This document shows, in pieces, positions 2,727-42,862 of a DNA stretch of 55,615 nt; position 1 is the stretch's first letter; the number at the start of each line of letters is the position of its first letter. Origin of the DNA: Candidatus Saccharimonadota bacterium (GTDB lineage: Bacteria; Patescibacteriota; Saccharimonadia; Saccharimonadales; EFPC-124); contig JARIHL010000068.1 in the NCBI GenBank assembly GCA_029288315.1, positions 1 to 55,615 on the forward strand, read 5' to 3'. Below the pieces are notes generated by a model. That model searched no databases and was not told the origin of the DNA. It saw only the letters and a list, made by a program, of their open reading frames with translations. A program made the translations under genes and the position numbers.

Positions 2727-3590
2727 TCACACTCCTTGTAGTTGTGGGGCGAACCCCATTTGACGGACCACGGTTGTGAGTTCCGCCTTCGTGCAGGACA
2801 CCACGTGCGGATGAGATGCACGCCACGCCAGGTTGTTAGCAAACTCGGTTGCCGCCCTACCACTATCTTCAACCAGCACTATCCACCAGGGATTCACTGG
2901 ATCATGTGGCAAATCAGCGACATGCAATATCTCTTTACGAGTGTACTCGCCACCGTTATATACCAAATGAAGCGACCGATGGTCACCTTCTCGGCGTAGC
3001 AAGTCCATATAGTCCAGGCAGACGAGTGCTTCATCAAACCAGGTCAGGTTCGGCCGGTCGGTGTTGAACTGCGCCAATACGCAGACCGGCGCCCTTTCGT
3101 CAAGGATAGTGTAGTGTGGCTCATCCGGCCGATTCTCGATGATTATCGAACCGCCATACAGGCGAGGCCCGTTGATGGTTGGTGCCACTCCCACAGTTTT
3201 GCCTAGAGCTCCCAAACGAGCAAGCTCGCAGAGGACATCCATCACACCTGGCTTGCGATGCGAAATAGTAGCAGCGCCTGCATGGAGCGGGCAATACGTT
3301 CTATTTCGATCGCACTCAGCGCAAATGCCGGGCTCTGGCCGACTAATAACCATAGTAGCCCCAGCTAAAACTGATGCCAGGCAATCTACACCGCCAAGCG
3401 CCTCGGCCAGTAGTTGGGCCACTCCGGCGCCTTCGTCAGCTGACATGTGCCCAGCACCACCGGTTACTCGCACGACTGCCTTGAGAAGAGAAGAGGCCAA
3501 ACGGACCAAATCTACTCGTGTCACGGCATCAGCGCGAGAGATAGCGATACTGCACATTCTCAACCAAGCGCCTAATTGAAGGTTGGGCAT
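2727..3590 (-). CDS. SLOG (LSDAT/TRPM-N-terminal-like) domain protein, paralog A
   Basis: High-GC 287-aa ORF with all three signature loops: VVRVTGGAGHM (compare TRPM ISVTGGAKNF), LVYNGGEYTRKEI, and IVLVEDSGRAATEFA (compare VVVEGSGRIADVI). Confidence 0.6.
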   Translation of the reverse strand: MPNLQLGAWLRMCSIAISRADAVTRVDLVRLASSLLKAVVRVTGGAGHMSADEGAGVAQLLAEALGGVDCLASVLAGATMVISRPEPGICAECDRNRTYCPLHAGAATISHRKPGVMDVLCELARLGALGKTVGVAPTINGPRLYGGSIIIENRPDEPHYTILDERAPVCVLAQFNTDRPNLTWFDEALVCLDYMDLLRREGDHRSLHLVYNGGEYTRKEILHVADLPHDPVNPWWIVLVEDSGRAATEFANNLAWRASHPHVVSCTKAELTTVVRQMGFAPQLQGV

Positions 3591-3852: not shown

Positions 3853-4476
3853 ATGGCACGACTACCAGAATTAGGAGGAGACGAGGGTACGTGGGGAATT
3901 GTTCTCAACGATTACCTTCAAGTCTCTCTCAATGCCGACGGCACCTTGAAGGCGAGCGCCACACCAGTACAATCAGTTGCCAGTAAAACCGGTGCTATTT
4001 CTTTGGTCAAGAGCGACGTTGGCCTGGGTAATGTTGATAATACTGCTGACACCAACAAACCTATCTCCACCGCCACTCAAACTGCCCTCAATGGTAAAGC
4101 GGACGTTAACACCACCGATGCGCTGGATACCCGAATTGATGCTTTAGAAACTGCAGGCATCGTCAGCTTAACTGATGGGGCTACCATTGCGACGAATGCG
4201 GCTACCGGAAAACACTTTCGCGTTACTGTGGCAGGCAATAGAACCTTAAGCACTCCTACCAATGCCACCGATGGCATGCGACGCATCTGGGAAATAACGG
4301 CCTCAGGCGCAGATAGAACTATCACCTTCACTACTGGCGTTGCTGGAAGTTTTGAGTTAACAACAAATATTACTTCGCCAATTACCATTACCAGCGGCAA
4401 GACGCACTTTATCGGTGCAATATATAACGCCTCAGGCGATCGATGGACTATATTGGCATCAAGAGCGACTTCATAA
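3853..4476 (+). CDS. phage tail-fibre/minor-tail-like protein (short paralog)
   Basis: The N-terminus MARLPELGGDEGTWGIVLNDYLQVSLNADGTLKAS is nearly identical in pattern to that of the 19185 gene. This LPxxGxDEGTWGxxLNDxL motif is one I associate with actinophage minor tail/fibre proteins. The rest is Thr/Ala/Gly-rich and beta-type. Confidence 0.5.
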   Translation: MARLPELGGDEGTWGIVLNDYLQVSLNADGTLKASATPVQSVASKTGAISLVKSDVGLGNVDNTADTNKPISTATQTALNGKADVNTTDALDTRIDALETAGIVSLTDGATIATNAATGKHFRVTVAGNRTLSTPTNATDGMRRIWEITASGADRTITFTTGVAGSFELTTNITSPITITSGKTHFIGAIYNASGDRWTILASRATS

Positions 4477-5031
4477 ATGGCGAGTTATAGCGACGATTTT
4501 AATCGATCAGATTCGACAAATATAGGCAACTGGGTAGAATGGAACGATGACTGGTCTATCACCAGCAATCAGCTGGCACCGGGCACGGCTTCAATCGCAT
4601 TTGTAATCTACGCGTCACCACTTGCTACATCCGATCATTACACACAAGCGGTACTGGCTAATGCCACTACCTCTTCGATGGGTGTCTTCGCTCGATCTAC
4701 ATCGGACGGCAGTTCATATTACTTATGGCGTAGCAATGGATCTGTCTGGAACTTATTCCGTCAAGTCGGCGGTTCGTTCATCGATTTAGGATCCTACAAT
4801 GCTTCGCTGGCCAATGGCGATGTGGCTCGGATTGAATGCGTTGGCTCTACCATCAAAGGTTATGTGAATGGCATTGAACGTCTATCCGTTACTGATACGG
4901 TTATAACTTCTGGATTATACGCTGGTATTCGCAGCACTCCAAGCTCAACCGCACGATACGACAATTTTTTAACAAGCGATATCAGCCCGATCGTTGACAG
5001 TGACATAGGTGCATTTTTTGACTTTATGTAG
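4477..5031 (+). CDS. LamG/concanavalin-A-like lectin-fold protein
   Basis: The start ATG directly abuts the upstream TAA (taaATG). The sequence pattern YYLWRSNGSVWNLFRQVGGSF...GDVARIECVGSTIKGYVNGIE is typical of the ConA-like/LamG jelly roll. Confidence 0.5.
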   Translation: MASYSDDFNRSDSTNIGNWVEWNDDWSITSNQLAPGTASIAFVIYASPLATSDHYTQAVLANATTSSMGVFARSTSDGSSYYLWRSNGSVWNLFRQVGGSFIDLGSYNASLANGDVARIECVGSTIKGYVNGIERLSVTDTVITSGLYAGIRSTPSSTARYDNFLTSDISPIVDSDIGAFFDFM

Positions 5032-5037
5032 GCTGTT

Positions 5038-5544
5038 ATGAAATCGCAAGGATTAGGTGATAACCAAGCTCGCACATTTACACCTCTCTTAGTGATGTTT
5101 GGTATCGTGCTTTGTTGGGCAACAGCGTTGACTTATCCCTGGTCAAGCCATCATGCTGGGCACGACTGGATGCGGCATGTGATGGGCGGATTTTTCCTGC
5201 TTTTTGGGGGGCTGAAGGTTGTCAATTTGCGTTCTTTTGCATTTTTATTTCGTGAATACGACATTATTGCAAAGCGAGTTGCAGTCTATGGCTCTATCTA
5301 TCCATTTCTTGAAATTGCACTTGGTATCGCTTACACCTTTAGTTTCTTTTTATTGGCTACAAATGTCATAACTGTAGTAATCATGAGTATTGGCGCTATT
5401 GGAATCATCCAAAAACTGCTAGCTAGACCGAAGTTCACCTGCGCATGCCTGGGCGGGCTTTTTACTATACCCCTCACCTGGCTCACTGCCGCCGAAAATA
5501 TAGTTATGGCGGCCATGGCTATCTATATGATTTTCTTCTCCTAA
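5038..5544 (+). CDS. MauE/DoxX-family membrane protein
   Basis: 168 aa with 4-5 TM segments. It has the CACLGG motif (compare the CGCFG of the MauE family) in the last helices. Confidence 0.55.
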   Translation: MKSQGLGDNQARTFTPLLVMFGIVLCWATALTYPWSSHHAGHDWMRHVMGGFFLLFGGLKVVNLRSFAFLFREYDIIAKRVAVYGSIYPFLEIALGIAYTFSFFLLATNVITVVIMSIGAIGIIQKLLARPKFTCACLGGLFTIPLTWLTAAENIVMAAMAIYMIFFS

Positions 5545-5613
5545 AACATTTTAAGGAGTCAGCTCAAATTGTAGTGAGGGCTGCTGAGGATAACCCCTGC
5601 AGCCCTCACGTCT

Positions 5614-6606
5614 TCACGCACCTATACCCATCAGCAAATGTGCAACTGCTTTGCCGATAGGTTGCCCAGTGGCTTGTTCTACAAAAAACCAGACGCCGAG
5701 GGTATTAATTTCAAAGAACCAATGAACACCTGAACAATCTACCCTCATATCGATCGCTCCATATTGTATCCCCAGATGCTGAAGCAGATCAGCACAACGC
5801 CGTTCAATCTCTGCAGGCAATGTGTAGGGCTCAATAGAAATGTTACCGCTTACCGTCCGCCCTACTGCCCGCCAGTCGCATACGGGGCCGGAATATCCTT
5901 GATCATTCGTGAGTTTGACAGCAAATACTTTTGCGCCTACGACAATAATGCGCAGATCTTCTCCTTCGATGTATTGCTGAAAGATTGCCGGTGCCCGAGG
6001 AAGTCCACTAAGACGCGGCAAAGATTCTGGTGTTATTTTGCCAGACCAAAATACCAAATAATGATCTTCTTGAGGCGTTATCGGAGCCCAGTCAGAACAG
6101 GTTTTAACCATGCAACAGCCTGTTCGATTTTGTTCAGCTGCAATGAATGTTGCTGCTCTGGCTGGATCTGACGTCTGAAGCGTGCGTGGCACAGAAAAAC
6201 CAAGTGAAGCGGCAACTTGCAGTTGCCAAGGCTTGCAGTCAACGCGCATCATGTCATAGGGATCTGATACCCAAAGAGCATTACTAAACCAGGCACCCAT
6301 CGCCTTGGCGTGCCGTTCGACAGCAGCCTTCGAGTAATCCCGCAGAAAACTCGGGATTTGTTCAAATGGCAGTTTATCTCCAATAAGCGCTATGGGTTGG
6401 CGCCACCATATTGCCGAAACATCAGTGAGTTGTTGCCCTCCAACATAGATAGAACTTTTTTTGTCTTCTTGGCAATACGATATTTCTTCTCCTTGTGGAA
6501 TAGCAGCGAGATCAACAATTATGAGTTCGCAATCCATGTGCGGAGAAACAAGAGAGTAATGAGCATCCCTTGGGTCTATCACAGCCAATATCTGCCCATT
6601 CGGCAC
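5614..6606 (-). CDS. ATP-grasp peptide ligase of the microviridin MvdC/MvdD (graspetide macrocyclase) type
   Basis: Block-wise similarity to MvdD as I remember it: VSAIWWRQP (VSAVWYRR), KPWQLQVAASLGFSVPRTLQTSDP (KQLQLQVARQLGLLIPGTLTSNNP), DWRAVGR (DWRKEGR), and YGAIDMRVDCSGVHWFFEINTLGVWFFVE (YGAIDMIVTPDERYIFLEINPVGEFFWLE). Confidence 0.8.
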   Translation of the reverse strand: MPNGQILAVIDPRDAHYSLVSPHMDCELIIVDLAAIPQGEEISYCQEDKKSSIYVGGQQLTDVSAIWWRQPIALIGDKLPFEQIPSFLRDYSKAAVERHAKAMGAWFSNALWVSDPYDMMRVDCKPWQLQVAASLGFSVPRTLQTSDPARAATFIAAEQNRTGCCMVKTCSDWAPITPQEDHYLVFWSGKITPESLPRLSGLPRAPAIFQQYIEGEDLRIIVVGAKVFAVKLTNDQGYSGPVCDWRAVGRTVSGNISIEPYTLPAEIERRCADLLQHLGIQYGAIDMRVDCSGVHWFFEINTLGVWFFVEQATGQPIGKAVAHLLMGIGA

Positions 6607-6645
6607 CGGGGTTCTCCTTCTTGATGGGAACGATTATGAAGGTGC

Positions 6646-6679
6646 GAGACTGGAGTGCCAATTTTGGCACTCCAGTCTC
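6646..6679 (-). terminator. intercistronic hairpin between the candidate precursor and the ATP-grasp gene (attenuator or processing site)
   Basis: Perfect 14-bp stem gagactggagtgcc / ggcactccagtctc with a 6-nt loop. It lies 22 nt after the stop at 6702 and 39 nt before the ATP-grasp start. No clear T-run follows it. Confidence 0.5.
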
Positions 6680-6701
6680 TCAGGCGTACAGCGAGACAGC
6701 C

Positions 6702-6872
6702 CTAAAGATTCTCTCCAGTCGGCCCACCGCCGGTCTCATCAACCGTTGAAGCCGAAATCCATCCCGCAGGAGGCGAGAACCTCCTCGGTTGCGGGAACAT
6801 AAGCTCCGGATATCCGAATACCTCGAGAGAGTTGCCCGTGAAGAGCGTTTCAGTGATTGTCGGCGTGTCCAT
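6702..6872 (-). CDS. candidate graspetide (omega-ester/amide RiPP) precursor peptide
   Basis: 56-aa ORF MDTPTITETLFTGNSLEVFGYPELMFPQPRRFSPPAGWISASTVDETGGGPTGENL with AAGGA 5 nt upstream of its ATG. In-frame alternative starts exist at 6878 and 6932. It sits immediately upstream of, and on the same strand as, the ATP-grasp ligase. The C-terminus is rich in Thr/Ser and Asp/Glu. Confidence 0.4.
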   Translation of the reverse strand: MDTPTITETLFTGNSLEVFGYPELMFPQPRRFSPPAGWISASTVDETGGGPTGENL

Positions 6873-7048
6873 ACCCATCCTTTGTCGTCGGGCAAGTACG
6901 TCACTTTTGTTTATAGCAAGCCTTACAGGCATAGTCAATAAAATGGTAATGTATCAAGCGTAACCAAACTGACTGATTATGATTCAATCTAAGTTAGCCC
7001 AGATTATGCAAGTACAACGATTGATGCGAATGATAAGTTGGGCGTTAA

Positions 7049-8074
7049 TTAAATATGCCCGCCTGCAAGTGCCAAAATAATACCTAACGCGGCGCACACC
7101 TGCCCAACAATCCAAAATCTCATGGTTACTTTAGTCTTTGGCCAACCAATAGCCTCAAGATGGTGATGAAACGGTGCTGAGATAAATATTTTACGGTGAA
7201 AGATTTTTTTAGAAAGTATTTGTGTCAGGCTTGAGCCAGCCTCGGCAACAAACACGAGGCCAATAATCGGTAGCAGGAATAATGTATCAGTCAACATGGC
7301 TACCACTCCCAATGCTGTTCCCAGCGCAAATGAGCCCGCATCTCCCATAAAGAAGCGCGCCGGGGGGATATTAAACCACACATATGCCAGGAGTGATCCG
7401 ACAACTGTCATACAGAATGCAGCAATGCCAAAATTACCCTGTAGTGCGGCAATAATCCCAAATGTTCCATACGCACTCATCAAGAGCCCGCCCGCTAAGC
7501 CATCTAATCCATCACTGATATTAACAGCATTACCAGTACTGACGACTACTAAAATAAAAAGTGGGATGAGCAGCCAGCCAAGTGCTATATCTCCTACAAA
7601 CGGAATGTGTGCCGCTGTGTAGCCTAGCTTGTAATAGAAAAACCATGCACCGATTGCCGCAACAGCCGTGATCATGGCAAATTTTATTGGAGACCGCAAG
7701 CCCGCTACACCGCCGCCCTTACCTCTGACATTAATAATATCGTCGATCAGCCCAACAATCCCGCCCCCCAACAATGCAGCCAAAGGCAGCCATGTCTGCT
7801 GGCGATCAAGATTAAATAACACCGTTACAGCGGTAACGGCAACTAGAATAATCACCCCAGCCATAGTCGGTATGTTTGGCCTACGAGTGCGCAACCGGGC
7901 AATAACTTCGAGCACTTCGCCCGTTGCCGAAGTAGTACGCGACAACTTCCAAAATTTATAGCGATACGCAAAGAATGTATAGATCGGCGTCAACAACATG
8001 GCCACACAAAAGGTGAGAAAACTCAGCGATAAAACCATTATTGCTTCTTGAGTGAGCTGTTCGAGTGTGAGCAT
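7049..8074 (-). CDS. mraY: phospho-N-acetylmuramoyl-pentapeptide transferase
   Basis: Polytopic membrane protein with NAVNISDGLDGLAGG, FMGDAGSFALG and a C-terminal PFHHHLE, which are the canonical MraY motifs. Confidence 0.9.
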   Translation of the reverse strand: MLTLEQLTQEAIMVLSLSFLTFCVAMLLTPIYTFFAYRYKFWKLSRTTSATGEVLEVIARLRTRRPNIPTMAGVIILVAVTAVTVLFNLDRQQTWLPLAALLGGGIVGLIDDIINVRGKGGGVAGLRSPIKFAMITAVAAIGAWFFYYKLGYTAAHIPFVGDIALGWLLIPLFILVVVSTGNAVNISDGLDGLAGGLLMSAYGTFGIIAALQGNFGIAAFCMTVVGSLLAYVWFNIPPARFFMGDAGSFALGTALGVVAMLTDTLFLLPIIGLVFVAEAGSSLTQILSKKIFHRKIFISAPFHHHLEAIGWPKTKVTMRFWIVGQVCAALGIILALAGGHI

Positions 8075-8241: not shown

Positions 8242-8865
8242 ATGAATATAGAAGCAACAACAGAACAGAACAGAAATCAATTTCATGAGTTGCATCATCC
8301 AATACTGATTATAGTAAGAGGCGTACCAGGCAGTGGTAAATCTTATTTAGCTGCCGCCTTACAAGAATCTCTCGGAAAAGAAAATGTAGTAACTCTTGAT
8401 CCTGACTCCATAGATCAAACCAGCAAAGAATATAGTGACTTTTCCAAAGCTTTAACCACAGAAGGAGTCGATACAAAGCTTCACCCCTACAGATTTTCAA
8501 GATCAAAAGCTTATGAGGCAATCGTTGCCCATAAAATTATTATCTGGAATCAACCTTTTATAGATTTTGAGGGATTTAGAAAAACAATCGATAGATTGCA
8601 AACATATGCCGCAGAACACACTACTCAGTTGCCAGCACTTGTTGTAGAGGTTGAAGTTAGTGAGGCCATCGCTAAAAAAAGAGTGATGAGCAGAAAAGAA
8701 CAGGGCGGGCACGGCCCAGCCGAAGATATTTTTGCTTACTTTATAAGCCAATATAAAAGTTTTTCAGAAAAAGGATACACCACCGTAATCGTTCAGGGTG
8801 AAGATGATGTAGCCGTATCTGTATCGGCAGTCAAGAATGCGCTCAGGAAATTACAGGAGAGATAG
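8242..8865 (+). CDS. P-loop NTPase/kinase (AAA_33 / zeta-toxin-like fold), function unknown
   Basis: Walker A GVPGSGKSYLA near the N-terminus. About 200 aa, the size of a small nucleotide/polynucleotide kinase. Confidence 0.55.
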   Translation: MNIEATTEQNRNQFHELHHPILIIVRGVPGSGKSYLAAALQESLGKENVVTLDPDSIDQTSKEYSDFSKALTTEGVDTKLHPYRFSRSKAYEAIVAHKIIIWNQPFIDFEGFRKTIDRLQTYAAEHTTQLPALVVEVEVSEAIAKKRVMSRKEQGGHGPAEDIFAYFISQYKSFSEKGYTTVIVQGEDDVAVSVSAVKNALRKLQER

Positions 8866-12165: not shown

Positions 12166-12199
12166 TCAGGAAGGCAGCACTTAATCGCTGCCTTCCTGA
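12166..12199 (+). terminator. hairpin terminator of the high-GC orphan gene
   Basis: 13-bp stem tcaggaaggcagc / gctgccttcctga with an 8-nt loop, 27 nt after the stop codon. Confidence 0.6.
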
Positions 12200-12284: not shown

Positions 12285-14684
12285 TTGACTAATCGCCCTA
12301 TGACGGCGGAATTCGGTTTGTTACGCAAGCTATCGGTCTTGGTTCTTATAGCCGTGCCACTCGTTGCGCTGCTAGGATGGGTGTTTAATGTACCCATTTT
12401 GCGCACTATAGCACCCGGTCTCACTCCTATGAACCCCTTGACGGCAGTATGTTTTTTAACCACTGCCCTCGTCATGTGGTTTTTATTAACTCACCAGGAT
12501 CCTGATAAGGCCACGCCCCGGCAGCGTGCCATCTTGTATTTCGTGGGCGCCGGGTTGGTGCTTGTGGGCGGCTCAGTTATTTTTCGCAGCCTTTTTGGTT
12601 GGCCGCTTAACCCTGATACAATTCTTTTTAGCGAACATCTCGGCACTAACAGAATGGCGCCGAATACCGCCTTAAACTTCTTACTGCTTGGCCTAGCTCT
12701 TATCTGCATGACAACAGTTGCCTTAATTCAATACGGCATTGTACGGATCAGTGCAATGATTGTATTTTCTGTTGCTCTGTCGGCCATTATAGGATATGGA
12801 TTTAATTTATTGCCGCTCTACAGCCTGGGTACGCTCACGCCTATGGCACTCCATACAGCAATCTTGTTCCTTATTATTAGCAGCGGTATGCTGACGGTAC
12901 GCTTTCAAGAGAACGACCTAAATCGCAAAGTCCTCTTGGGTTTGGTGGTTATGCTAACAGCGATTTTGAGTGTTGTGTCGCTTGTGGTTGCAAGTTTTAA
13001 TAGTCAGCACCATCTACAAGACAGAATCACCAAAGCAGAGCAAATCACTACAACAAGTGCCGAACTCTTATCCACCATGAAGGATGCCGAAACAGGTCAA
13101 CGCGGCTATCTGCTCACTGGCAATCAAAACTTCTTGGAACCATATGATTCAGCGGTGGCTCATTATCCAACGTTGCTACAAACGCTTCGCGACATAACCA
13201 AAGATGATCCAGACCAAGCACCGCGCATCGCCGAACTTGAACTACTTATTCAAAGAAAATTTGATTTTATTGCCCTCACTATCACTACCTACCGACAACA
13301 AGACGCTGCTTCCAGTATTGCCATAATTAAAACCAATCAAGGCAAGCTTATTATGGATGCTATTAGAAGGGTGACTGATGAGATATCGCAGAATGCCCGC
13401 ACCGACGCGAGCGCTCTTGTGGCTGCACAACAAGCAACCGATGACCGCACGCTTTACTACATTCAGCTAACGAGCGCTCTGGCGATGGTGCTTATTATTG
13501 GCATTATGCTCCTGCTTATCCGTGAAACCGGTGGTCGTACAAGAGCCGAGCGGGCACTAAGAGAAGAAAGGAACGTGGCCATTGCCGCCAAAGCCAAAGA
13601 CGAAGCGATTCTCTCAAGCATCGGTGATGGTGTGTTCGCACTCGACAGTCATAACCGTATTATCTTATTCAATAAAGCTGCGCAGCATATAAGCGGCTAT
13701 AATGAGCAAGAAGCGCTCGGCAAGCTCTATTCTGATGTCCTGGCTTTCAGTAGCGAAGATGGCAAAACGAAGCACGCTACTTTTATCGAACAGGCACAAC
13801 GTGGGATACAAGCCCAGATGGAAAATCATACTGTGCTTAAAAATAAAGCTGGCGAACTTATTCCAGTTGATGACTCAGCCGCCCCCATTCGTAATGCCGA
13901 TGGTAAGCAGATTGGTATAATTATCGTATTCCGCGATATTACAAAACAACGTCAACTTGAACGAGCAAAAGATGAATTTATCTCACTCGTTTCACATCAA
14001 TTGCGTACACCGCTTACCGCTATTCGGCTGTTTGTCGAAATGCTAAAAGGCGAACAAGTCGGGAAGCTGAATGCGCAACAAAAAGGCTATATCGAAAAAG
14101 TACATCTTTCAACCGAACGAATGATTAAGTTAGTAGGTGATATTCTAAATGTCTCACGTATCGAACTTGGCCGCATAAAAGTCGAACCAACCACAACTGA
14201 TACCAACGCACTTATCTTATCCCATATAGATGAGGTTGCACCATTGGCGAAAGAGAAAAAGGTAGCAATCACCTTTATCCCTCGAAAAGACCTACCCAAG
14301 CTATCGGTCGATCCAATCCTGTTTGGTCAAATTGTCCACAATTTACTGACAAATGCTATTCGATATACGAAAGATAAAGAAGGTAAAGTCAACCTTACCT
14401 TTTTACAAAAAGGAAAGGATTTTGAACTCAGCGTCAAGGATAATGGTATTGGTATCCCAACAGCAGAACAATCACATATCTTTGAACGTTTTTACCGAGC
14501 GGAAAACGCCAAGCAAGCAATCGGTGAAGGTACTGGCCTTGGGCTTTACCTTATAAAACTCATCCTAACAACAGCTGGTGGCGCTATCCGTTTTGAATCA
14601 ACACAAGGAAAAGGCACCACATTTTACGTCACAATTCCTGCAAGCGGCATGAAGCCAAAACGAGGTGACAGGAGTCTAGGTTAA
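12285..14684 (+). CDS. sensor histidine kinase (multi-TM N-terminus, CHASE3, PAS, HisKA, HATPase_c)
   Basis: TTG start 8 nt after AAGGAG. Motifs: CHASE3 signature AETGQRGYLLTGNQNFLEPY, a PAS region (SIGDGVFALDSHNRIILFNKAA), H-box SLVSHQLRTPLTAI, N-box LLTNAIRYT and G-boxes DNGIGIP / GTGLGL. Confidence 0.9.
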   Translation: MTNRPMTAEFGLLRKLSVLVLIAVPLVALLGWVFNVPILRTIAPGLTPMNPLTAVCFLTTALVMWFLLTHQDPDKATPRQRAILYFVGAGLVLVGGSVIFRSLFGWPLNPDTILFSEHLGTNRMAPNTALNFLLLGLALICMTTVALIQYGIVRISAMIVFSVALSAIIGYGFNLLPLYSLGTLTPMALHTAILFLIISSGMLTVRFQENDLNRKVLLGLVVMLTAILSVVSLVVASFNSQHHLQDRITKAEQITTTSAELLSTMKDAETGQRGYLLTGNQNFLEPYDSAVAHYPTLLQTLRDITKDDPDQAPRIAELELLIQRKFDFIALTITTYRQQDAASSIAIIKTNQGKLIMDAIRRVTDEISQNARTDASALVAAQQATDDRTLYYIQLTSALAMVLIIGIMLLLIRETGGRTRAERALREERNVAIAAKAKDEAILSSIGDGVFALDSHNRIILFNKAAQHISGYNEQEALGKLYSDVLAFSSEDGKTKHATFIEQAQRGIQAQMENHTVLKNKAGELIPVDDSAAPIRNADGKQIGIIIVFRDITKQRQLERAKDEFISLVSHQLRTPLTAIRLFVEMLKGEQVGKLNAQQKGYIEKVHLSTERMIKLVGDILNVSRIELGRIKVEPTTTDTNALILSHIDEVAPLAKEKKVAITFIPRKDLPKLSVDPILFGQIVHNLLTNAIRYTKDKEGKVNLTFLQKGKDFELSVKDNGIGIPTAEQSHIFERFYRAENAKQAIGEGTGLGLYLIKLILTTAGGAIRFESTQGKGTTFYVTIPASGMKPKRGDRSLG

Positions 14685-15292: not shown

Positions 15293-15907
15293 TCATAACA
15301 GCACTTTATTACTTTGTCTGGCTTTCAAGGCCGTATTCTCAAATACTCGTTTCAGAGCTTCGTAATCTGCTCTGGCTTCTTCCTTCTCGTCTGCAAAGAA
15401 AATCTTAGTGCCGAAATCTCTCTCAATTTTTGCGGTAAACCACCTCTGCCATTCTTCGTAGGTATGACTAGTATCTGGCCGATTCATATAACAAATAACT
15501 GGAAAGAAGTTCGTTTGTAAGTGCCGCATGCCATCCGCAGTGGCTAACACTTTTCCTTCTAGCGCGGTTGGGAGATGTCCTGGATGACAGGAATGAGTAC
15601 GGATAGCCTCAAGGATTTCATCACGCTCATGTTTGCGGAATTCGGCGTTTCTTAGTATTGCTTTAGCCGTTTCCCACGACCATGTGTCAAAATTTGCATG
15701 GTCTCTTTCATAACGGCTGTCGCCTAAGTCGTGAAGCAAAGCAGCACAATACACTTTCTCGGTATCGGCTCCATATTTTTCGGCTAATTGTTTGGCCTTA
15801 TCGGCCACCCATTGCGTGTGATTATGCCACATCCACTCGCCCATGCTGGTTGTGGCTGCTTGGTATAACGTACGAACCTCAGAGAATGTTATTTTGCTTT
15901 TGTCCAT
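15293..15907 (-). CDS. HD-domain phosphohydrolase
   Basis: H...HD signature (WMWHNHTQWV ... CAALLHDLGD) in a 204-aa all-helical protein. Confidence 0.7.
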   Translation of the reverse strand: MDKSKITFSEVRTLYQAATTSMGEWMWHNHTQWVADKAKQLAEKYGADTEKVYCAALLHDLGDSRYERDHANFDTWSWETAKAILRNAEFRKHERDEILEAIRTHSCHPGHLPTALEGKVLATADGMRHLQTNFFPVICYMNRPDTSHTYEEWQRWFTAKIERDFGTKIFFADEKEEARADYEALKRVFENTALKARQSNKVLL

Positions 15908-16059: not shown

Positions 16060-16192
16060 GGCAAGTATACCCTACGTCATGGAACGTCAGGCGGAGTGCA
16101 ACTCGGGAATATATACCCAGGTAAATTTTTAAAAATTTACCTGGGTATATATTCCCTAGTGAAGCGTGTCCATGACGTAGGGTATACTTGCC
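16060..16192. mobile_element. MITE copy A (133 bp) with an 8-bp target-site duplication
   Basis: Terminal inverted repeats ggcaagtataccctacgtcatgg / ccatgacgtagggtatacttgcc. The element is flanked by an identical tttcaaat at 16052-16059 and 16193-16200. An internal second palindrome (gggaatatatacccaggtaaattttt / aaaaatttacctgggtatatattccc) is absent from copy B. Confidence 0.85.
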
Positions 16193-16228: not shown

Positions 16229-16861
16229 GTGAAAACTTTAGAGTTAAGTAGCGCTAAACATACTGTCGACTTTTTAAACAGGAGAGTGGGTACTGAGAAC
16301 GAAGTTTTACATGGATCTTCACGCCTCGATCTGCCGGAATTACTACCTTATACAACAGATCACCGACGCTTTCATCGCGAGTCTGAACGTGAGCCACTTA
16401 TCTATGCGACCAAGATTGCTGCGATAGCAATTTTTTATGCTACAGTTATGAGACCGGTACGAGATGCGCAGTTTCATCGAGCTTGCGGCACTAAGCCCGA
16501 CCCTGCTAGTGAGTTTGGATATCAATTTCAAATGAGTGATGCCGCGAAAGAGCTTATTAGGCGCCGAGAAAAAGCAGGACTTTGCGGCGCTGTGTACTAT
16601 ATTTCACAGGCCCATTTTCAGCCAGAGGGCATAGAGTGGATCGCGAAAGCGCCTATTCCTAATCCACAGTCAGTAGCAACTACCACTGTCTGTCTTCCTT
16701 TCAATATATGGGATCTTCCCGCTCCTCAAAGTGACCCATGGACACGCGAACATCATGATCAATATGGTACTCCACCAGAGACACAACTAGACGAGGTTAA
16801 TAAAGTGAATATAAGTAGACAAATAGCGCGAACGGCTGTCAGCAATTGTTCTCTTGCATAA
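16229..16861 (+). CDS. hypothetical protein
   Basis: 210-aa ORF with a GTG start and no obvious SD. It begins 29 nt after the MITE target-site duplication. No family recognised. Confidence 0.4.
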   Translation: MKTLELSSAKHTVDFLNRRVGTENEVLHGSSRLDLPELLPYTTDHRRFHRESEREPLIYATKIAAIAIFYATVMRPVRDAQFHRACGTKPDPASEFGYQFQMSDAAKELIRRREKAGLCGAVYYISQAHFQPEGIEWIAKAPIPNPQSVATTTVCLPFNIWDLPAPQSDPWTREHHDQYGTPPETQLDEVNKVNISRQIARTAVSNCSLA

Positions 16862-20885: not shown

Positions 20886-21236
20886 ACCACCTATCCTCCC
20901 AAAGACCTAGAAGAGAAAAGAGCCAAGAAAGAAACTCAGCGACCAGCCGATTTAGCACGCGTACTGGACAGGGCTAGACATTTCGCCGAAAACCTTGATC
21001 AGTTACTCATTCAACAGATTGACCCAATCAAAAAAGCTCGTCTTTTTGGTGTAATTTTTGATCGCACACCAACCTATGATGATTTGCAACTTGGAAACAC
21101 GAAAACACCCCTTTTTACAGGGGTGAATCCGTTCTTCCAAAAATCTATTATGGTGAGCCTGCGGAGCAAAAACTGGAACACTTTGCAGGCAAGCTTGGAT
21201 CGCTTGGACAGCCAGATTACAAAACTAGGATTTTAA
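20886..21236 (+). pseudogene. 5'-truncated remnant of a recombinase/integrase-like gene (copy 1) ending in a tRNA 3'-end fragment
   Basis: Open frame without a start codon: ...FAENLDQLLIQQIDPIKKARLFGVIFDRTPTYDDLQLGNTKTPLFTGVNPFFQ... Positions 21018-21156 repeat at 26765-26920, including tatggtga(g/c)cc, which in copy 2 is the 3' end of tRNA-Glu. Assignment to a recombinase is from memory of similar tRNA-overlapping C-termini and is not verified. Confidence 0.45.
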
Positions 21237-22112
21237 GGCTGTTTCACTGCCAATTTTCCAAATACCCTTCTCACGGAAGGCTGGAATAGTCTGGCGACGC
21301 GCAGCATTTAAAAGCGAGTTCGCAGACTCGCCAGCTCGCTTTGCATAGTCAGTTAGAGCGATTATCTCTTGGCCTTCCAGATACGTGATGCGCTTATGTA
21401 AAGATTCCATAAGCGAAAGCGCCAGCAAGCCATCGAGCTTTTCAGTGCCTTTACTATCTTGATAGGACTGGAAGGCTGGATAGTAGTAATCACGTTTACC
21501 CTTATTGCGAATAATCACTGGCGGATAACCATGAAGCATTAGCTGCATGTTAATAAGTACGCGACCAATGCGGCCATTGCCATCAACGAAGGGGTGGATG
21601 CGTTCAAATTCAAGATGGAAGCGCGAAATACGATCGAGGAAATAGTCATCATGTGAGCTTTCGTAGTCTGTCAAAAGATTATCAAGAAGCTGCTCTATAT
21701 GTTCCGGCGCTGGTGCGATGTGGCTACCAACCCGAACGTACTCGTGCGAAGCGCGAAATCTGCCGGCAATCTTGTCGTCAATACCACCAATGAGCATATG
21801 ATGTAAGAGTAAAATGGCTTCCTTATCAAGCTTAATGTCCGGTTTATTGCGAATATATTCTGTGACGCGTGCCAGGTTTTTCGCCTCAAATAGCTCACGT
21901 ACACTTATATTACGAGCAACTTCCAGCTCAAGCAGAATACGCTCAGTTTCTTGTAGTGTGAGTGTCGAGTTTTCAATAGCGTTTGAGTTATACACAAGCT
22001 CAGGAACTTCGACTTCGTCAATCATGACAAGCAGAGAACTTTTGCCATTCCTGAGCTGCTCGTATACTTGTTTAAGCTGCTTAATTCTAGACTTATTGTA
22101 GTAACTTATCAT
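21225..22112 (-). CDS. Fic-family protein (AMPylase type) with an N-terminal autoinhibitory motif
   Basis: Fic core HPFVDGNGRIGR (HxFx[D/E]GNGRxxR). The upstream SNAIEN matches the (S/T)xxxE(G/N) inhibitory helix motif of class II Fic proteins. Confidence 0.9.
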   Translation of the reverse strand: MISYYNKSRIKQLKQVYEQLRNGKSSLLVMIDEVEVPELVYNSNAIENSTLTLQETERILLELEVARNISVRELFEAKNLARVTEYIRNKPDIKLDKEAILLLHHMLIGGIDDKIAGRFRASHEYVRVGSHIAPAPEHIEQLLDNLLTDYESSHDDYFLDRISRFHLEFERIHPFVDGNGRIGRVLINMQLMLHGYPPVIIRNKGKRDYYYPAFQSYQDSKGTEKLDGLLALSLMESLHKRITYLEGQEIIALTDYAKRAGESANSLLNAARRQTIPAFREKGIWKIGSETALKS

Positions 22113-27074: not shown

Positions 27075-28403
27075 TCACTTTGTTGAACAACGAACAGCTC
27101 TGACGAGTGGTAATTCCGCCCAACTAGTCATGTAGGCGGGGCTGCGTTGTTCACGTTTACTGTGCCAGGCATTGCGGTCAATGTGCTCGCTTGCGTGACG
27201 CACCAGCCTCGTGTTAAATCGTTTATTAATTGCATCAACAGATCGCATAAGAGCGCTCTGACGCTCAAGACGTTGAGGGTTAGTTTCAAAGAGCGACACC
27301 TGCACAGCTTGGGCCGATTTCAGATCAACTAGTATAACTCCTCCCTTTTTATAACTAAGATCAGGATCATAAATGGCTTGAAGCCCTTTGAGTGCCGCTT
27401 CAATAATTACTCCTGTATCGGCGCTTGGCTGCATTAGACGAATTACTACTGAGGTGCTCTGATATTGCTCGAATCGTCTGGCTGGCCGTAAAAAGATCAT
27501 CACTGCCTCTGTCAATTCTTGCTGAGAACGCAGTTTAGCGCTAGCCTGAGCAGCAAAGGTGGCAATTGCCCCCTCTAATTCATAATAATTACGCATATTG
27601 TGCCCAAAAGAACGTGTACGGGCAATAGATTTTTGGGGCTCACGATCTGTGGCAAGCCTAAACCATACTTCGCCCTTGAGTTCTCTAACAGTTTGTACAC
27701 CTCTGATGCCCATCTGAGCCTGAGCCCAGGCATCACTTACCTGCGCCAGATCATAGGCGGTTGCGATACCTCTCTGGCGAAGTTTTGGAGCTGTTCGCCA
27801 GCCAATCCCCCAGATGTCGCTAACTGATAACCACTTTAGTAATCGTTCCCTATCCATCTCAGTTTGAGCATGGTAAGCGCCCTCAGTTTCAGGTAATTGC
27901 TTTGCATATTCAGCCGCAGCTTTCGCCAACGTTTTGGTTGACGCCACCCCTATTGAGACGGGGATGCCCGTCCACTGAAATATGCACTGACGTAAGGCTC
28001 GGGCCCACCCAGTGTAATCAGAAAGGCGCAGTGAGGAAATTTCTAAAAATGACTCGTCAACAGAGTAGACCTCAACATAAGGAGCTGCAGCCTGTAATAT
28101 TTTAACGACACGCTGCGAAAAGTCGCCATACAGGGGAAAGTTCCCCGAAAACAGCGTAACTTTATGAGCTTCTAATACATCTCTTACCTTAAACAGAGGT
28201 ATGCCCATTGGTACACCGAGAAGTTTGACTTCGTTGCTACGAGCTACAATACATCCGTCATTATTACTGAGTACTGCAACCGGTTTATTCCAGAGGTCAG
28301 GACGAAAAACCCGCTCACAACTAACAAAGAAGTTATTGCAGTCTACTAATGCAAACACTGCACCCCTAGAATCACACACAATCGTATGTCCATTTTGCTT
28401 CAT
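27075..28403 (-). CDS. umuC: Y-family DNA polymerase (Pol V catalytic subunit-like)
   Basis: N-terminus FALVDCNNFFVSCERVFRPDLWNKPVAVLSNNDGCIVARS and SVDESFL are hallmark UmuC/DinB motifs. 442 aa. Confidence 0.9.
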   Translation of the reverse strand: MKQNGHTIVCDSRGAVFALVDCNNFFVSCERVFRPDLWNKPVAVLSNNDGCIVARSNEVKLLGVPMGIPLFKVRDVLEAHKVTLFSGNFPLYGDFSQRVVKILQAAAPYVEVYSVDESFLEISSLRLSDYTGWARALRQCIFQWTGIPVSIGVASTKTLAKAAAEYAKQLPETEGAYHAQTEMDRERLLKWLSVSDIWGIGWRTAPKLRQRGIATAYDLAQVSDAWAQAQMGIRGVQTVRELKGEVWFRLATDREPQKSIARTRSFGHNMRNYYELEGAIATFAAQASAKLRSQQELTEAVMIFLRPARRFEQYQSTSVVIRLMQPSADTGVIIEAALKGLQAIYDPDLSYKKGGVILVDLKSAQAVQVSLFETNPQRLERQSALMRSVDAINKRFNTRLVRHASEHIDRNAWHSKREQRSPAYMTSWAELPLVRAVRCSTK

Positions 28404-30910: not shown

Positions 30911-30942
30911 ATAAGCCTCATCTGTTATAAGATGAGGCTTAT
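30911..30942 (+). terminator. hairpin terminator
   Basis: 12-bp stem ataagcctcatc / gatgaggcttat with an 8-nt loop, 21 nt after the stop. Confidence 0.65.
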
Positions 30943-32708: not shown

Positions 32709-32714
32709 GTAATT

Positions 32715-32750
32715 GGCCCAGCCAGAGTGATTTTCTACTCTGGCTGGGCC
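32715..32750 (+). terminator. intercistronic hairpin
   Basis: Perfect 14-bp stem ggcccagccagagt / actctggctgggcc between the two island genes. Confidence 0.5.
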
Positions 32751-32775
32751 ATCCCCACACTTCAAGGAGAAGTAA

Positions 32776-36047: not shown

Positions 36048-36079
36048 AAAACCACCCCCCATTTTTGAGGGGTGGTTTT
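36048..36079 (+). terminator. rho-independent terminator
   Basis: Stem aaaaccacccc / ggggtggtttt with a trailing T-run, 32 nt after the stop. Confidence 0.7.
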
Positions 36080-36563: not shown

Positions 36564-36788
36564 ATGAGTAAACGAAATCGCAAGCATCGCCACAAATCCT
36601 ACCAAGGCGAAGACGCTAAAACACCCAGCCAAGGCCCTACCGTTACTCGCTATAAAGCTATAGTACGCTCACCACTTGGAGAATGGTGGCATGAACATAA
36701 ACGCAGTACCAAAATAATTGGCGGTATTACTGGCGGCGTTGTTATTGCTGCCTGGCTTTTGTTCGAGTTGTTTCGACTCGTTTTTTAA
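36564..36788 (+). CDS. small basic single-TM protein
   Basis: 74 aa: a Lys/Arg/His-rich N-terminus (MSKRNRKHRHK) and a C-terminal helix IIGGITGGVVIAAWLLFELF. Its 3' end overlaps the convergent kinase gene. Confidence 0.45.
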   Translation: MSKRNRKHRHKSYQGEDAKTPSQGPTVTRYKAIVRSPLGEWWHEHKRSTKIIGGITGGVVIAAWLLFELFRLVF

Positions 36789-38937
36789 ACTTGCTGGTGA
36801 GTGGCAATTTGAAGCCAAAAACACTTCCTTTATGTTCTTGGCTTTCGAAAATCATTTCACCTCCGTGCGCCGCAATAACCATTTTAGCCATAAATAGTCC
36901 GATGCCAGTGCCATCCGGCCGGACCTGCCGTGCATTGCTAGCCCGAAAAAATTTTGTAAATAGACTGGCTTGCTCTTTCGGGGGCACACCAATACCATTA
37001 TCTTCTACGGTCAATATAACTTGCTTATCATTTTCAGAAAGCGTTATCAAAATGTCGCCACCGCTATTTGAATAGAAAATTGCATTATCAATAAAATTCA
37101 TAATAACCTGCCGAATCTTGGTTTCATCAAGCTGCATTACGAGGAAATCAACAGGAACGTGCGTTCGTATAGTTATGCCCCTTGCTTTTGCCGCAGCCGT
37201 TAATTGGCTCACTTCTTCATGTATCAAATCTGGCAAACTCACAGTACTTGGTTCGAGCAAAAACTTGCCAGTTTTTAGCCGTGAGATATTTAAAAAGTCA
37301 GCTATCATATAGACCATGCGCTGAGCACTTGCATAAGCTTCTTGCAGCAGTTTCCTCTGATCGGTATTTAAAGCCCCTGCATCTCCCTCAAGCACCATCG
37401 ATACATAACCTTTAACACTTGTCAGCGGCGTGCGCAACTGATGAGAGGCCATGCTAATGAATTCGTCTTTGGCCTCATCAAGCGCACGGAGTTTTTTGTT
37501 GCTCTCGCGCAACTGTTTTGTTGCTTCATCCACCTCTGCTTGCAATGTCTCATTAAAATGCGCAATCTCTTCAAATCGAAGCGCGTTTTGCACCGCCACC
37601 GCTAATTCATCGCTTGCGATGCGGATGAGATTGATGTCTTGATTAGTATAAATATTACCGCTAGACTTGTAGCCAAATACTATATAACCAATAAGCTCTT
37701 TAGAGGTCTCAATCCGGGCAATAATCCCAATATTTTCTTGGTGCATTAATCGATAAAGATGCGATGTCTGAGCAGCTAAGTCATCTTGCACAATGATAAT
37801 ATCATTGTAGTGGGCAATTTCGGTGAGGAGTTTTCCTGTATCTTGATTTTTTGGAAGACGACCAACTGAAAAATGCCGCTCATTAACTTGTTTAGAGCTA
37901 ATAAGATAAATCGCAATATAATCAGCTTTGATAGATTTTTGCAGAATAGCAAGAGCATCGTGCGCAAGTTTTTGTACAGCATTTGTACTTACTAAAATAT
38001 TGGCTAGTCTATCAAGAACTTGCTGAGTTTCATACATATCTTGGTAAAAGATAGCTTTACTAATTTTATCAAAGAAATTCTTCATAGGTCCGAACGTCGT
38101 GGCTAAAACTAAAGCGAGAAAAATATAAACCATCTCTCGAGTTAATGAAGTCTGCGGTTCACCTTGGAGTAAGCCTGCAGCCAAAGCGAATGCTAATAAG
38201 CTATATACAGCAGCGATAGTCACCAACGATAAAACATAGGCGACAAACCGCGCCACCACTAAACGAATATCAAAAAGTCTGTGTCTAACAATGGCATACG
38301 CTGTGCCGCCTACTAATAAAAGCGAGAAGACTGGTCCAAACTGGACATAACTGTAATTACCCAACATTGGTAACACCAGGTTGAGGATAACTCCTAAAAA
38401 GGCACTGCTACTAAAACTGGCGATAATTATTCGAATTCTAGCACGACTAGCCCCCCGATGAGTTCCCACTGCTCTCCATAGAGCAATAACACCCGCAAGC
38501 AAGTAGGTAATAATAATCAGACCATACAGTATTAAAGAAAAGGCGTTAGTAATAATGGTGTTATCCACTATTGTAACTGCAACTACACCAGGTATTGCTG
38601 AAAAGATGGCCGTGATACACCCCATGCCGATTAGTACAGATTGCTGCCAGGATTTAATTTTTGCATCGCTTAACTTTAGGCAAAATAATAGAAAAAATAG
38701 GACTATAAAAGCTGCTGCAGCGTAGCTTGCGAGTGCAATACTATATTTTAGCTCGCCGCTAACTTGTTGATATAGAACATTAGTAATGCTCCAGATAGTT
38801 ATTGAAAACGCTTGACCGAAAAATAAACGGTTCAGAATACTCCTGGAATTGCGTAATAACACGATCAAACCAACACCAAGGTTTGCAAGAGATGCAATAA
38901 TCAAGAGGGAGTGTGCCCAAAACATATGCGTTATCAA
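36742..38937 (-). CDS. sensor histidine kinase (about 8 TM N-terminal domain, GAF-like, HisKA, HATPase_c)
   Basis: About 290 aa of TM helices and a central GAF-like region. Motifs: H-box SMASHQLRTPLTSV, N-box FIDNAIFYS, DNGIGVP and GTGIGL. It starts 4 nt after the stop of the acyltransferase gene. Confidence 0.9.
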   Translation of the reverse strand: MITHMFWAHSLLIIASLANLGVGLIVLLRNSRSILNRLFFGQAFSITIWSITNVLYQQVSGELKYSIALASYAAAAFIVLFFLLFCLKLSDAKIKSWQQSVLIGMGCITAIFSAIPGVVAVTIVDNTIITNAFSLILYGLIIITYLLAGVIALWRAVGTHRGASRARIRIIIASFSSSAFLGVILNLVLPMLGNYSYVQFGPVFSLLLVGGTAYAIVRHRLFDIRLVVARFVAYVLSLVTIAAVYSLLAFALAAGLLQGEPQTSLTREMVYIFLALVLATTFGPMKNFFDKISKAIFYQDMYETQQVLDRLANILVSTNAVQKLAHDALAILQKSIKADYIAIYLISSKQVNERHFSVGRLPKNQDTGKLLTEIAHYNDIIIVQDDLAAQTSHLYRLMHQENIGIIARIETSKELIGYIVFGYKSSGNIYTNQDINLIRIASDELAVAVQNALRFEEIAHFNETLQAEVDEATKQLRESNKKLRALDEAKDEFISMASHQLRTPLTSVKGYVSMVLEGDAGALNTDQRKLLQEAYASAQRMVYMIADFLNISRLKTGKFLLEPSTVSLPDLIHEEVSQLTAAAKARGITIRTHVPVDFLVMQLDETKIRQVIMNFIDNAIFYSNSGGDILITLSENDKQVILTVEDNGIGVPPKEQASLFTKFFRASNARQVRPDGTGIGLFMAKMVIAAHGGEMIFESQEHKGSVFGFKLPLTSKFKKRVETTRTKARQQ

Positions 38938-42755: not shown

Positions 42756-42862
42756 CACAGACCGTTCCGTGGGCTTGTTATCTCAGCACGAGACGGCAAG
42801 CCCACGGAGCACATACGAATCCCCTGGAGGGATTTTTTATTTTGTGCTCAGACCAAACTACT

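Follow-up and report, generated by a model that had tools for sequence, protein, structure and literature searches.

A probable two-gene graspetide cassette downstream of mraY in a soil Saccharimonadales genome

The locus considered here raises the question of whether an ATP-grasp protein, and the short open reading frame (ORF) that lies directly upstream of it on the same strand, together form a biosynthetic unit for a graspetide, a peptide whose side chains are joined into macrocycles by an ATP-grasp ligase. The DNA is positions 1 to 55,615 of contig JARIHL010000068.1 (assembly GCA_029288315.1, Candidatus Saccharimonadota bacterium), and these 55,615 nucleotides (nt) as a whole are referred to as the window. 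A sequence-only reading of the window had proposed a microviridin-type locus made up of a precursor candidate, a hairpin and an ATP-grasp macrocyclase. Based on the analysis below, we consider it probable that the locus is a self-contained two-gene graspetide cassette of a soil Saccharimonadales bacterium, located in a variable region just downstream of mraY. All coordinates given in that reading proved correct. The features on which the argument turns are as follows.

5614-6606, minus strand: ligase gene, encoding a graspetide-type ATP-grasp macrocyclase of 330 amino acids (aa), with a GTG start at 6606 (NCBIfam, PDB, fold and residues).
6702-6938, minus strand: short ORF, the candidate precursor gene (ORF list and sequence).
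6795-6827, minus strand: leader-like segment LEVFGYPELMF of the short ORF, a degenerate version of the clade motif with Val for Pro and one extra residue.
6705-6761, minus strand: putative core WISASTVDETGGGPTGENL, following a PPAG small-residue doublet; the boundary is a predicted one, and the tail composition is in the family range.
6646-6679, minus strand: hairpin with a perfect 15-bp stem and a 4-nt loop (RNAfold).

When NCBIfam models were scored against the ligase, all matches were below the curated cut-offs. The top model was TIGR04187 (GRASP_SAV_5884; E 7.4e-45, 153.5 bits vs a cut-off of 350), followed by TIGR04184 (MvdD; E 3.1e-43, 148 bits vs an equivalog cut-off of 475), TIGR04185 (MvdC; E 1.1e-34, 120 bits vs a cut-off of 425) and a grasp-with-spasm maturase model (E 2e-10), with the RimK and cyanophycin synthetase models at E 0.022 and 0.3, respectively. 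The TIGR04184 alignment pairs ligase residues 26-326 with model positions 25-320 of 321, and the earlier description of a "block by block" match to MvdD was therefore a fair one. Since the scores fall below the equivalog cut-offs, the ligase is not an MvdD, MvdC or SAV_5884 equivalog. The designation "microviridin-type" accordingly holds at the level of the enzyme superfamily and no further, as the protein lies in a separate clade and below the MvdD and MvdC equivalog cut-offs. No Pfam family matched the ligase at E < 0.1. A search of all PDB sequences returned six matches, which are exclusively graspetide ligases (MdnC, at 2.1e-32, CdnC, AMdnB, PruB, MdnB and PsnB); no RimK, GshB or Ddl was found at E 0.01. 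The AlphaFold model of the ligase, made from a 25-sequence alignment (predicted local distance difference test, pLDDT, 87.2; predicted template-modelling score, pTM, 0.86), has an ATP-grasp fold plus an N-terminal pre-ATP-grasp domain, and its nearest structures are known graspetide ligases: CdnC, MdnC, AMdnB, PruB, PsnB and MdnB occupy Foldseek ranks 1-32 (E 1e-25 to 9e-16, template-modelling (TM) score ~0.7-0.8), with RimK appearing only from rank 33 (E 2e-14).

The residues of the active site agree with this assignment. A study of PsnB found that Arg72, Arg213 and a D(F/W)R loop are conserved across graspetide ligases and needed for activity. The window ligase carries R69 (in WWRQP), R219 (in LRIIVVG) and D244-W245-R246 as diagnostic residues, and the usual ATP-grasp residues K168, Q210, D286 and E299-x-N301. 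The D244-W245-R246 triplet aligns with the DWR of MdnC and CdnC, and across 25 clade sequences R219 is invariant and R69 nearly so; these two residues would correspond to PsnB Arg213 and Arg72, as we equate them through alignment context rather than by direct alignment with PsnB. The ligase departs from its relatives at 9 of 67 columns with at least 85% conservation, and none of the listed catalytic or ATP-binding residues is affected. Five of the nine departures are conservative; of the remaining four, three are grouped at 302-305 (TL.V for PN.Q), in a segment that resembles EIN..G..FFW of MdnC and CdnC. The enzyme is an intact graspetide macrocyclase, and both its identity and its intactness are secure.

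Relatives of the ligase come from a restricted set of bacteria. A protein index held 28 of them, the best at 41% identity, and all those with a named source belong to Patescibacteria or Saccharimonadales. When one genome per GTDB species was scanned, 423 relatives were obtained, of which the best 26 loci were inspected for titles; these 26 are mostly from Saccharibacteria, Saccharimonadales, WWE3 and Patescibacteria, with a few "uncultured bacterium" metagenome-assembled genomes (MAGs), two Actinobacteria (Actinoallomurus and Labedaea) and one MAG labelled Pristimantibacillus. The ligase clade is found almost only in Saccharibacteria and WWE3. In a neighbour-joining tree, calculated without bootstrap and with Giovannonibacteria sequences left out, this clade stands apart from Streptomyces and proteobacterial ligases, and the window ligase sits beside that of a Saccharibacteria locus (L008), on the longest branch of the clade. 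The clade also contains the 316-aa ligase of WWE3 bacterium RAAC2_WWE3_1 (L022), with which the window ligase groups, and which is a Branch 2 member listed under Branch_2 in Table S1 of Makarova et al. (2022, Biol Direct 17:7; PMC8939145) without an assigned precursor.

The sequence-only reading had suggested aligning the short ORF with peptides encoded beside homologous ligases. All small ORFs within 500 nt of each ligase were listed at 33 loci, and flanks were available for 30 distinct ligases. Peptides do adjoin the homologous ligases: an ORF of 45-123 aa carrying a leader motif is found next to 27 of the 30 evaluable clade ligases, in 26 cases upstream on the same strand or within a same-strand array, and in one case convergent. 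The motif, taken from an alignment of 28-30 family precursors, reads P-(F/Y/V/A)-G and then two hydrophobic residues two or three positions later (in short, P-(F/Y)-G-x-x-(L/M/F)-(L/M/F)); examples are VQPFGADLMTP, VVPFGAKYLKK and EPYGTREMINV. Its Pro is present in 29 of the 30 listed precursors, the exception being L031 (IFG). The motif lies 31-70 residues from the C-terminus, and the tails are rich in Thr/Ser and Asp/Glu (for example NTNTGTGTSQPDADHD and TGTPTDGNDRDSDRVD), a combination of motif and tail that occurs in just 3 of 1183 other small ORFs of the same loci. Flanking genes are unrelated between loci (ribosomal proteins and EF-G, trehalase, DHFR, a toxin-antitoxin pair) and neither of the two nearest mraY relatives has the ligase; what is conserved is therefore the pair of genes. 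The precursor-plus-ligase architecture is conserved across the clade, with two core subtypes, one Thr-rich and then Asp-x-Asp, and the other G-x-L-A-C ... DD. Neither the window peptide nor the precursors of seven relatives had a curated NCBIfam match. Outside the clade, Streptomyces ligase relatives have upstream precursors with the leader PWGMxRMxP, and proteobacterial relatives have multi-core precursors with PF(L/I)xxFA, both of which fit the general motif Phhx(1,2)h put forward by Makarova et al. (PMC8939145). In the supplements of that paper, VVPFG and QPFG occur only in actinobacterial precursors.

Several of these loci are worth recording in their own right. Two divergent precursor-ligase pairs are present at L001. 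On JGI metagenome contig Ga0136846_1220526 (L005:2286-6981), three ligases are accompanied by seven small same-strand ORFs, whose precursor subtype has a conserved G-x-L-A-C...DD and a long tail with S-L-(F/L/A/V) at its end; further examples of this subtype are present in L012, L021, L028 and L029 and in Actinoallomurus (L013), and its conserved Cys hints at extra or different chemistry. In WWE3 RAAC2_WWE3_1 (CP006914.1), a 46-aa ORF, MKSKRKPVKVVPFGAKYLKKVAMANKRSSSNTNTGTGTSQPDADHD, at L022:2756-2896 lies 102 nt upstream of the 316-aa ligase, and between the two are a 12-bp hairpin with a U-tract and, after it, the AAGGAGG of the ligase; the same arrangement of a precursor-like ORF is seen at L030:2679-2897. 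This 46-aa ORF is a candidate for the precursor left unassigned for the RAAC2 Branch 2 ligase. Finally, the ligases of two cultured Actinobacteria, Actinoallomurus acaciae (L013, 71% guanine plus cytosine (GC)) and Labedaea rhizosphaerae (L024, 66.5% GC), are nested in this candidate phyla radiation clade, and their modules have a GC content 4-7 points below that of the flanks. The L013 precursor is of the G-x-L-A-C...DD kind (subtype B), like those of Saccharibacteria. On the tree without bootstrap, this nesting may point to genes having been transferred between Saccharibacteria and Actinobacteria; the known hosts of cultured Saccharibacteria belong to the latter phylum.

In the window, the short ORF is located directly upstream of the ligase on the same strand, and its position, strand and size are as in the relatives (26 of 30). 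Translation could start at TTG 6938 (78 aa), ATG 6932 (76 aa) or ATG 6872 (56 aa); we prefer the last of these, which has AAGGA at 6882-6878, 5 nt ahead of it, and is the start that the sequence-only reading had favoured. The frame has the highest codon-usage score of the six (0.082 per codon, compared with 0.093 for the ligase); on the same scale true genes score 0.167 +/- 0.071 and off-frames -0.35 +/- 0.23, and just 1.6% of off-frame windows reach the value of the short ORF. The peptide contains FG-x3-LM, with the motif Gly 36 aa from the C-terminus (family range 31-70). Its last 22 residues include 5 Ser/Thr and 3 Asp/Glu (the family median is 4 for both), which bears out the C-terminal Thr/Ser plus Asp/Glu cluster described earlier, and the absence of a microviridin core motif agrees with the statement that the core does not resemble TxKYPSDWEEY. 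The loose leader pattern occurs in 16 of 1250 reading-frame segments of the window, and the loose motif together with such a tail occurs in the short ORF alone. The stop codon (6702-6704) is followed by the gene-end hairpin. The putative core WISASTVDETGGGPTGENL has five Ser/Thr, three Asp/Glu and no Lys; rings formed on it would therefore be expected to be omega-esters only, at most three in number, with no lactam, in a pattern that is not predictable from sequence. The GGG in the tail was considered as a double-glycine leader cleavage site and rejected, as it would leave a six-residue core, PTGENL, presumably too small for graspetide rings. A likeness of PAG-x-I-(S/T) to the precursor of L006, seen by eye, was unsupported by alignment.

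The hairpin between the two genes had been described as perfect with a 14-bp stem; it is real and at the same coordinates, and RNAfold gives it 15 bp. It starts 22 nt past the stop codon of the short ORF and ends 39 nt ahead of the ligase start codon. The 131-nt region around it folds at -53.3 kcal/mol vs -37.4 +/- 3.9 for shuffled sequences (z -4.1, 0 of 200 shuffles as stable), and a repeat search finds 19-nt arms with 95% complementarity. Its arm sequence is unique in the window, and it is thus not a repeated element there. An Rfam search of 5300-7300 gave a single match, between the hairpin and a model of a microRNA precursor (E 0.22, 21.6 bits vs a cut-off of 90), which we put down to chance. 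For comparison, we examined relatives with a precursor-ligase gap of 75-102 nt. The order of precursor, hairpin, ribosome-binding site and ligase recurs in the two WWE3 loci L022 and L030, where U-rich sequence comes after a 12-bp stem, and, likewise with a 12-bp stem, in a further Saccharibacteria lineage (L033). A strong stem at this place should reduce or punctuate transcription into the ligase gene, and it marks the short ORF as a gene end. The hairpin at 6646-6679 is probably a partial terminator or a transcript-stabilising element. As judged from sequence, a role as an attenuator of ligase transcription is plausible, and we regard the case for it as evenly balanced.

A number of results weigh against the cassette as we have described it. 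A leader profile, made from 28 family precursors anchored on the motif Gly, was run against all 552 window ORFs of at least 30 aa and failed to retrieve the short ORF, its top matches being noise. Smith-Waterman alignment of the 56-aa peptide with each family precursor (500 shuffles) gave a best p of 0.07, and the alignment suggested by the sequence-only reading was thus without significance. The 78-aa peptide had no match, not even itself, in an index of 5.8 billion proteins; as that index does contain the ligase and MraY from this contig, the short ORF probably had no gene call. Among 1.84 billion representatives, the sole HMMER match was a 1128-aa Ser/Thr/Gly-rich repeat protein (6.8e-9), judged to be spurious, with a score summed over six repeats. 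This protein (P0150) has a repeat of ~160 aa with SALSVYGGGDLAFPALSQLSEPGG, loosely like NSLEVFGYPELMFPQPRRFSPPAG in the window peptide, a likeness that we judge to be coincidental. The Pro found in 29 of 30 family precursors is Val in the window peptide, and the motif-plus-tail pattern was itself defined after seeing the data. The hairpin is not followed by a U-tract and a canonical intrinsic terminator was not called; at least eight other genes of the window have a similar hairpin past their end. A search of sequencing runs found no RNA runs carrying the locus. Lastly, there is no protease or exporter nearby, which leaves maturation and export unaccounted for.

Three other explanations were weighed against these data. 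The ATP-grasp protein might be a housekeeping amide ligase of the RimK, GshB or cyanophycin-synthetase type, acting on a protein or small molecule and with no peptide role. Several sources indeed give its homologues the name "glutathione synthase/RimK-type ligase-like ATP-grasp enzyme", and their precomputed Pfam matches, mostly weak, are to RimK (PF08443). However, the RimK model reached only E 0.022 vs 1e-34 to 7e-45 for the peptide-maturase models, no RimK, GshB or Ddl passed E 0.01 in the PDB search, and RimK structures ranked under every graspetide ligase; the graspetide-specific Arg residues and DWR loop are present, a precursor-like ORF is kept beside the ligase in the clade, and the gene is patchy and accessory among close relatives. 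The sequence-only reading had named closest homologues of RimK/GshB type without adjacent peptides as the finding that would speak against it; the closest homologues are graspetide ligases, with a precursor-like ORF adjoining. A housekeeping enzyme is very improbable, and already close to refuted. Alternatively, the ligase may be genuine and ORF 6702-6938 not its substrate, being instead a chance ORF or a decayed precursor, with the true precursor elsewhere or lost (an orphan ligase). This would fit the failure of the profile and pairwise alignments to link the peptide to family precursors, its lack of homologues and its absence from an index that holds the ligase and MraY, and the Val in place of a nearly invariant Pro. 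Furthermore, 3 of 30 related ligases likewise have no recognisable adjacent precursor, precursors were not found for most of Branch 2 (Makarova et al., PMC8939145), and the window ligase is on the longest branch of its clade. On the other hand, the short ORF has the position, strand and size seen in 26 of 30 relatives, coding-like usage in this frame alone, a ribosome-binding site and a gene-end hairpin, and a tail composition and motif-to-end distance in the family range; the motif and tail are found together in no other ORF of the 55.6-kb window, the L031 precursor is also without the Pro, and the intact catalytic residues argue for a substrate still in use. We consider an orphan ligase unlikely. 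The short ORF is, in our view, the likely substrate of the ligase: an adjoining precursor with leader and core fits in its position, strand, size, tail and codon usage, although the leader motif is degenerate and the profile and pairwise tests are non-significant. We base this assignment on position, composition, codon usage and the degenerate leader motif; sequence statistics do not link the peptide to the family precursors.

The third alternative concerns the hairpin, which may be a generic intergenic, terminator-like element of this genome with no special role in the ratio of precursor to ligase, the ligase possibly using its own overlapping promoter-like site. Perfect or near-perfect hairpins of 13-17 bp are located within about 30 nt past stop codons at 1737-1784, 12166-12199, 30911-30942, 32714-32751, 36048-36079, 42766-42808, 46206-46235 and 5574-5609, and four of these (1737-1784, 12166-12199, 32714-32751 and 46206-46235) are between same-strand genes; such hairpins appear to be the usual gene-end signal of the genome. 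The generic explanation also draws on the promoter-like TTGGCA-17-CATAAT (10/12) at 6661-6633, and on the fact that in most relatives precursor and ligase are 0-50 nt apart or overlapping, without a hairpin. Against it, the order recurs independently in a further Saccharibacteria lineage and in WWE3, and a generic terminator at this place would still lower transcription of the ligase relative to the precursor, such that the two readings overlap in effect. We find a generic element possible, its probability falling just short of even.

If the short ORF is the precursor, a mechanism for the cassette can be drawn by analogy with MdnC and PsnB. Translation of the short ORF would give a precursor of ~56 aa, whose leader segment LEVFGYPELMF would dock on the ATP-grasp ligase. 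The ligase would then use ATP to phosphorylate Asp/Glu side-chain carboxylates in the core WISASTVDETGGGPTGENL, and Ser/Thr hydroxyls would attack the acyl phosphates and close as many as three omega-ester (lactone) macrocycles. If the leader is removed and the product exported, enzymes encoded elsewhere in the genome would do this. The hairpin would probably end or stabilise most precursor transcripts, leading to more precursor mRNA than ligase mRNA. In this scheme we infer the identity of the substrate, the core boundary, the number of rings, the function of the hairpin and any bioactivity. Characterised graspetides most commonly act as protease inhibitors.

The content of the locus is minimal. 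No second ligase is present in the whole 55.6-kb window, and Pfam identifies no acetyltransferase, methyltransferase, peptidase, exporter or SPASM enzyme among the ORFs within ~10 kb; the only ABC ATPase detected in the window lies at a distance of 44 kb. These searches agree with the earlier claim that there is no second ligase, acetyltransferase, protease or exporter nearby, and the minimal cluster proposed on that basis recurs as a two-gene layout in relatives. A minimal two-gene cluster is normal for graspetides outside the microviridins, where clusters usually contain biosynthetic genes only (bioRxiv 10.1101/2023.06.21.545981).

On the minus strand, from 7049 to 5544, the order is the end of mraY, a 110-nt spacer, the short ORF, a 95-nt spacer with the hairpin, the ligase ORF and a second hairpin; the spacer from mraY to the ligase is 442 nt and contains the short ORF. 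The remaining features of the locus are the following.

7049-8074, minus strand: mraY, whose end adjoins the 110-nt spacer before the short ORF.
7003-7030, minus strand: sigma-70-like promoter match TTCGCA-16-CATAAT, 9/12, between the mraY stop codon and the short ORF (consensus scan).
6661-6633, minus strand: second promoter-like match, TTGGCA-17-CATAAT, 10/12, overlapping the 3' arm of the hairpin (consensus scan).
6614-6619, minus strand: Shine-Dalgarno-like AAGGAG, 7 nt ahead of the ligase GTG (direct sequence reading).
5574-5609, strand unassigned: imperfect hairpin between the ligase stop codon and the MauE-like gene, with 16-nt arms of 88% complementarity (repeat search).
5038-5544, plus strand: gene for a MauE-like membrane protein, convergent with the ligase (neighbour annotation).

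The promoter-consensus scan found 6 sites vs 3.0 +/- 1.8 expected, which is weak evidence for both promoter-like matches. The hairpin at 5574-5609 is likely a terminator common to the ligase and the MauE-like gene, and would close the locus.

The MraY of the window is 83% identical to that of Candidatus Saccharimonadales MAGs, and the locus is present in three DNA sequencing runs, all from one soil metagenome sample, among whose contigs no variants were found. On these grounds the host is a soil member of the Saccharimonadales (Saccharibacteria/TM7, candidate phyla radiation). By Pfam, the genes around the ligase encode the MauE-like protein, GtrA, MraY and a zeta-toxin-like kinase, the others being ORFs without annotation. 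In the two mraY relatives nearest to the window (L088 and L089, Saccharimonadales), the synteny of zeta-like kinase and mraY is kept, the ligase is lacking and unrelated genes occupy the site of the cassette; the region downstream of mraY is variable. The kinase, a zeta-toxin/AAA_33-like P-loop protein encoded at 8242-8865 (plus strand), is divergent to mraY at 7049-8074 (minus strand), and it is this pairing that is kept in L088 and L089.

Among known systems, Branch 2 of Makarova et al. (PMC8939145) is like the window locus in that its hosts are uncultured candidate phyla radiation bacteria and its small precursors are hypervariable and have a hydrophobic leader motif that includes Pro. It differs in that the host here belongs to the Saccharimonadales, and the word "Saccharibacteria" is not mentioned in the part of the supplement text that we covered. 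In that study, a "cluster 23" lipoprotein-like protein was present in all Branch 2 loci, often with SPASM enzymes, methyltransferases or peptidases, whereas the window locus has no SPASM enzyme, methyltransferase or peptidase by Pfam, and its peptide is not a strict match to Phhx(1,2)h. No precursor had been assigned to the RAAC2-type sub-branch; the window clade offers candidates.

The microviridin maturases MdnC/MvdD and MdnB/MvdC (Group 1; PDB 5IG9 and 5IG8) provide the closest solved structure. MdnC is the best such match (2.1e-32, TM ~0.8), and shares with the window ligase the DWR loop, the catalytic residues of ATP-grasp enzymes and the fold, of which the N-terminal pre-ATP-grasp domain is a part. 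Leader-dependent side-chain macrocyclisation, as we propose for the window locus, is what microviridins undergo. In contrast, identity to the microviridin maturases is only ~26-27%, and the microviridin cluster has two ligases, a GNAT acetyltransferase and an ABC transporter where the window has one ligase and no GNAT or nearby transporter. The window peptide is also without the PFFARFL leader, the TxKxPSDx(D/E)(D/E) core and the Lys of microviridins, such that no lactam would be expected. The scores, motifs, single ligase and lack of GNAT and transporter place the window locus outside microviridin Group 1.

SAV_5884-type ligases (TIGR04187) give the top NCBIfam model, yet the window ligase scores under its cut-off, and in the neighbour-joining tree they form a branch separate from the window clade. 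The Streptomyces precursors of this type have the leader P-W-G-M-x-R-M-x-P, clearly related to the clade version P-F-G-x-x-L-M-x-P, and Thr-rich then Asp-rich cores; we take these Streptomyces relatives to be the Group 13 graspimiditides of Ramesh, such as albusimiditide. With 153.5 vs 350 bits for TIGR04187, no adjacent methyltransferase and no curated precursor family, the window locus falls outside Group 13/SAV_5884. There is no PIMT-type O-methyltransferase near the window ligase, and aspartimide formation is therefore not expected.

Candidate phyla radiation bacteria have tiny genomes and depend on host bacteria; that such genomes keep, and apparently exchange, a cassette for cyclising peptides suggests that it has a part in interactions between symbiont and host or among symbionts. 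Graspetide loci in these bacteria were already predicted in 2022, in a bioinformatic survey (PMC8939145) that is the sole paper in the searchable literature to join the candidate phyla radiation with graspetides. The same literature held no paper pairing graspetides or microviridins with Saccharibacteria or Patescibacteria, and no ribosomal peptide natural product of the candidate phyla radiation that had been characterised by experiment. The window locus is a rather divergent new representative of a known graspetide class, and its biochemistry is expected to be ordinary graspetide chemistry. The clade as a whole could be an undescribed graspetide family, that is, a mobile two-gene cassette mainly of Saccharibacteria and WWE3, and occasionally of Actinobacteria, with a P-(F/Y)-G-x-x-(L/M/F) leader and hypervariable cores. 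We put this forward tentatively, with slightly more doubt than belief. If it is true, the new family would supply missing precursors for part of Makarova Branch 2, and could point to peptide-mediated symbiont-host interaction and to gene exchange between host and symbiont.

With two genes and ~1.3 kb in total, the cassette would be easy to test by heterologous co-expression. The ~30 precursor-ligase pairs share one simple leader motif and include candidates for WWE3 ligases without an assigned substrate; they could serve as a panel in which one enzyme scaffold is combined with very different cores. The actinobacterial members inside the clade and the consistent precursor family are a by-product of modest added interest.

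Other genes in the window include two abutting ORFs just past the MauE-like gene (3853-4476 and 4477-5031, plus strand; 207 and 184 aa), which have no Pfam match, the stop codon of the first overlapping the start of the second by one base. Three genes look accessory: a SLOG (LSDAT_prok) domain protein at 2727-3590 (minus strand; a weak match at 2.3e-5), a Fic/DOC protein at 21225-22112 (minus strand) and an ImpB/UmuC-type Y-family polymerase at 27075-28403 (minus strand). Two large sensor histidine kinases are encoded at 12285-14684 (with a CHASE3 domain) and 36742-38937. Lastly, positions 16101-16160 form a 60-nt AT-rich near-perfect palindrome, with 30-nt arms that are 97% complementary and no spacer, flanked by a divergent HD-domain gene (15293-15907, minus strand) and an unannotated ORF (16229-16861, plus strand); it could be an operator or another protein-binding site.

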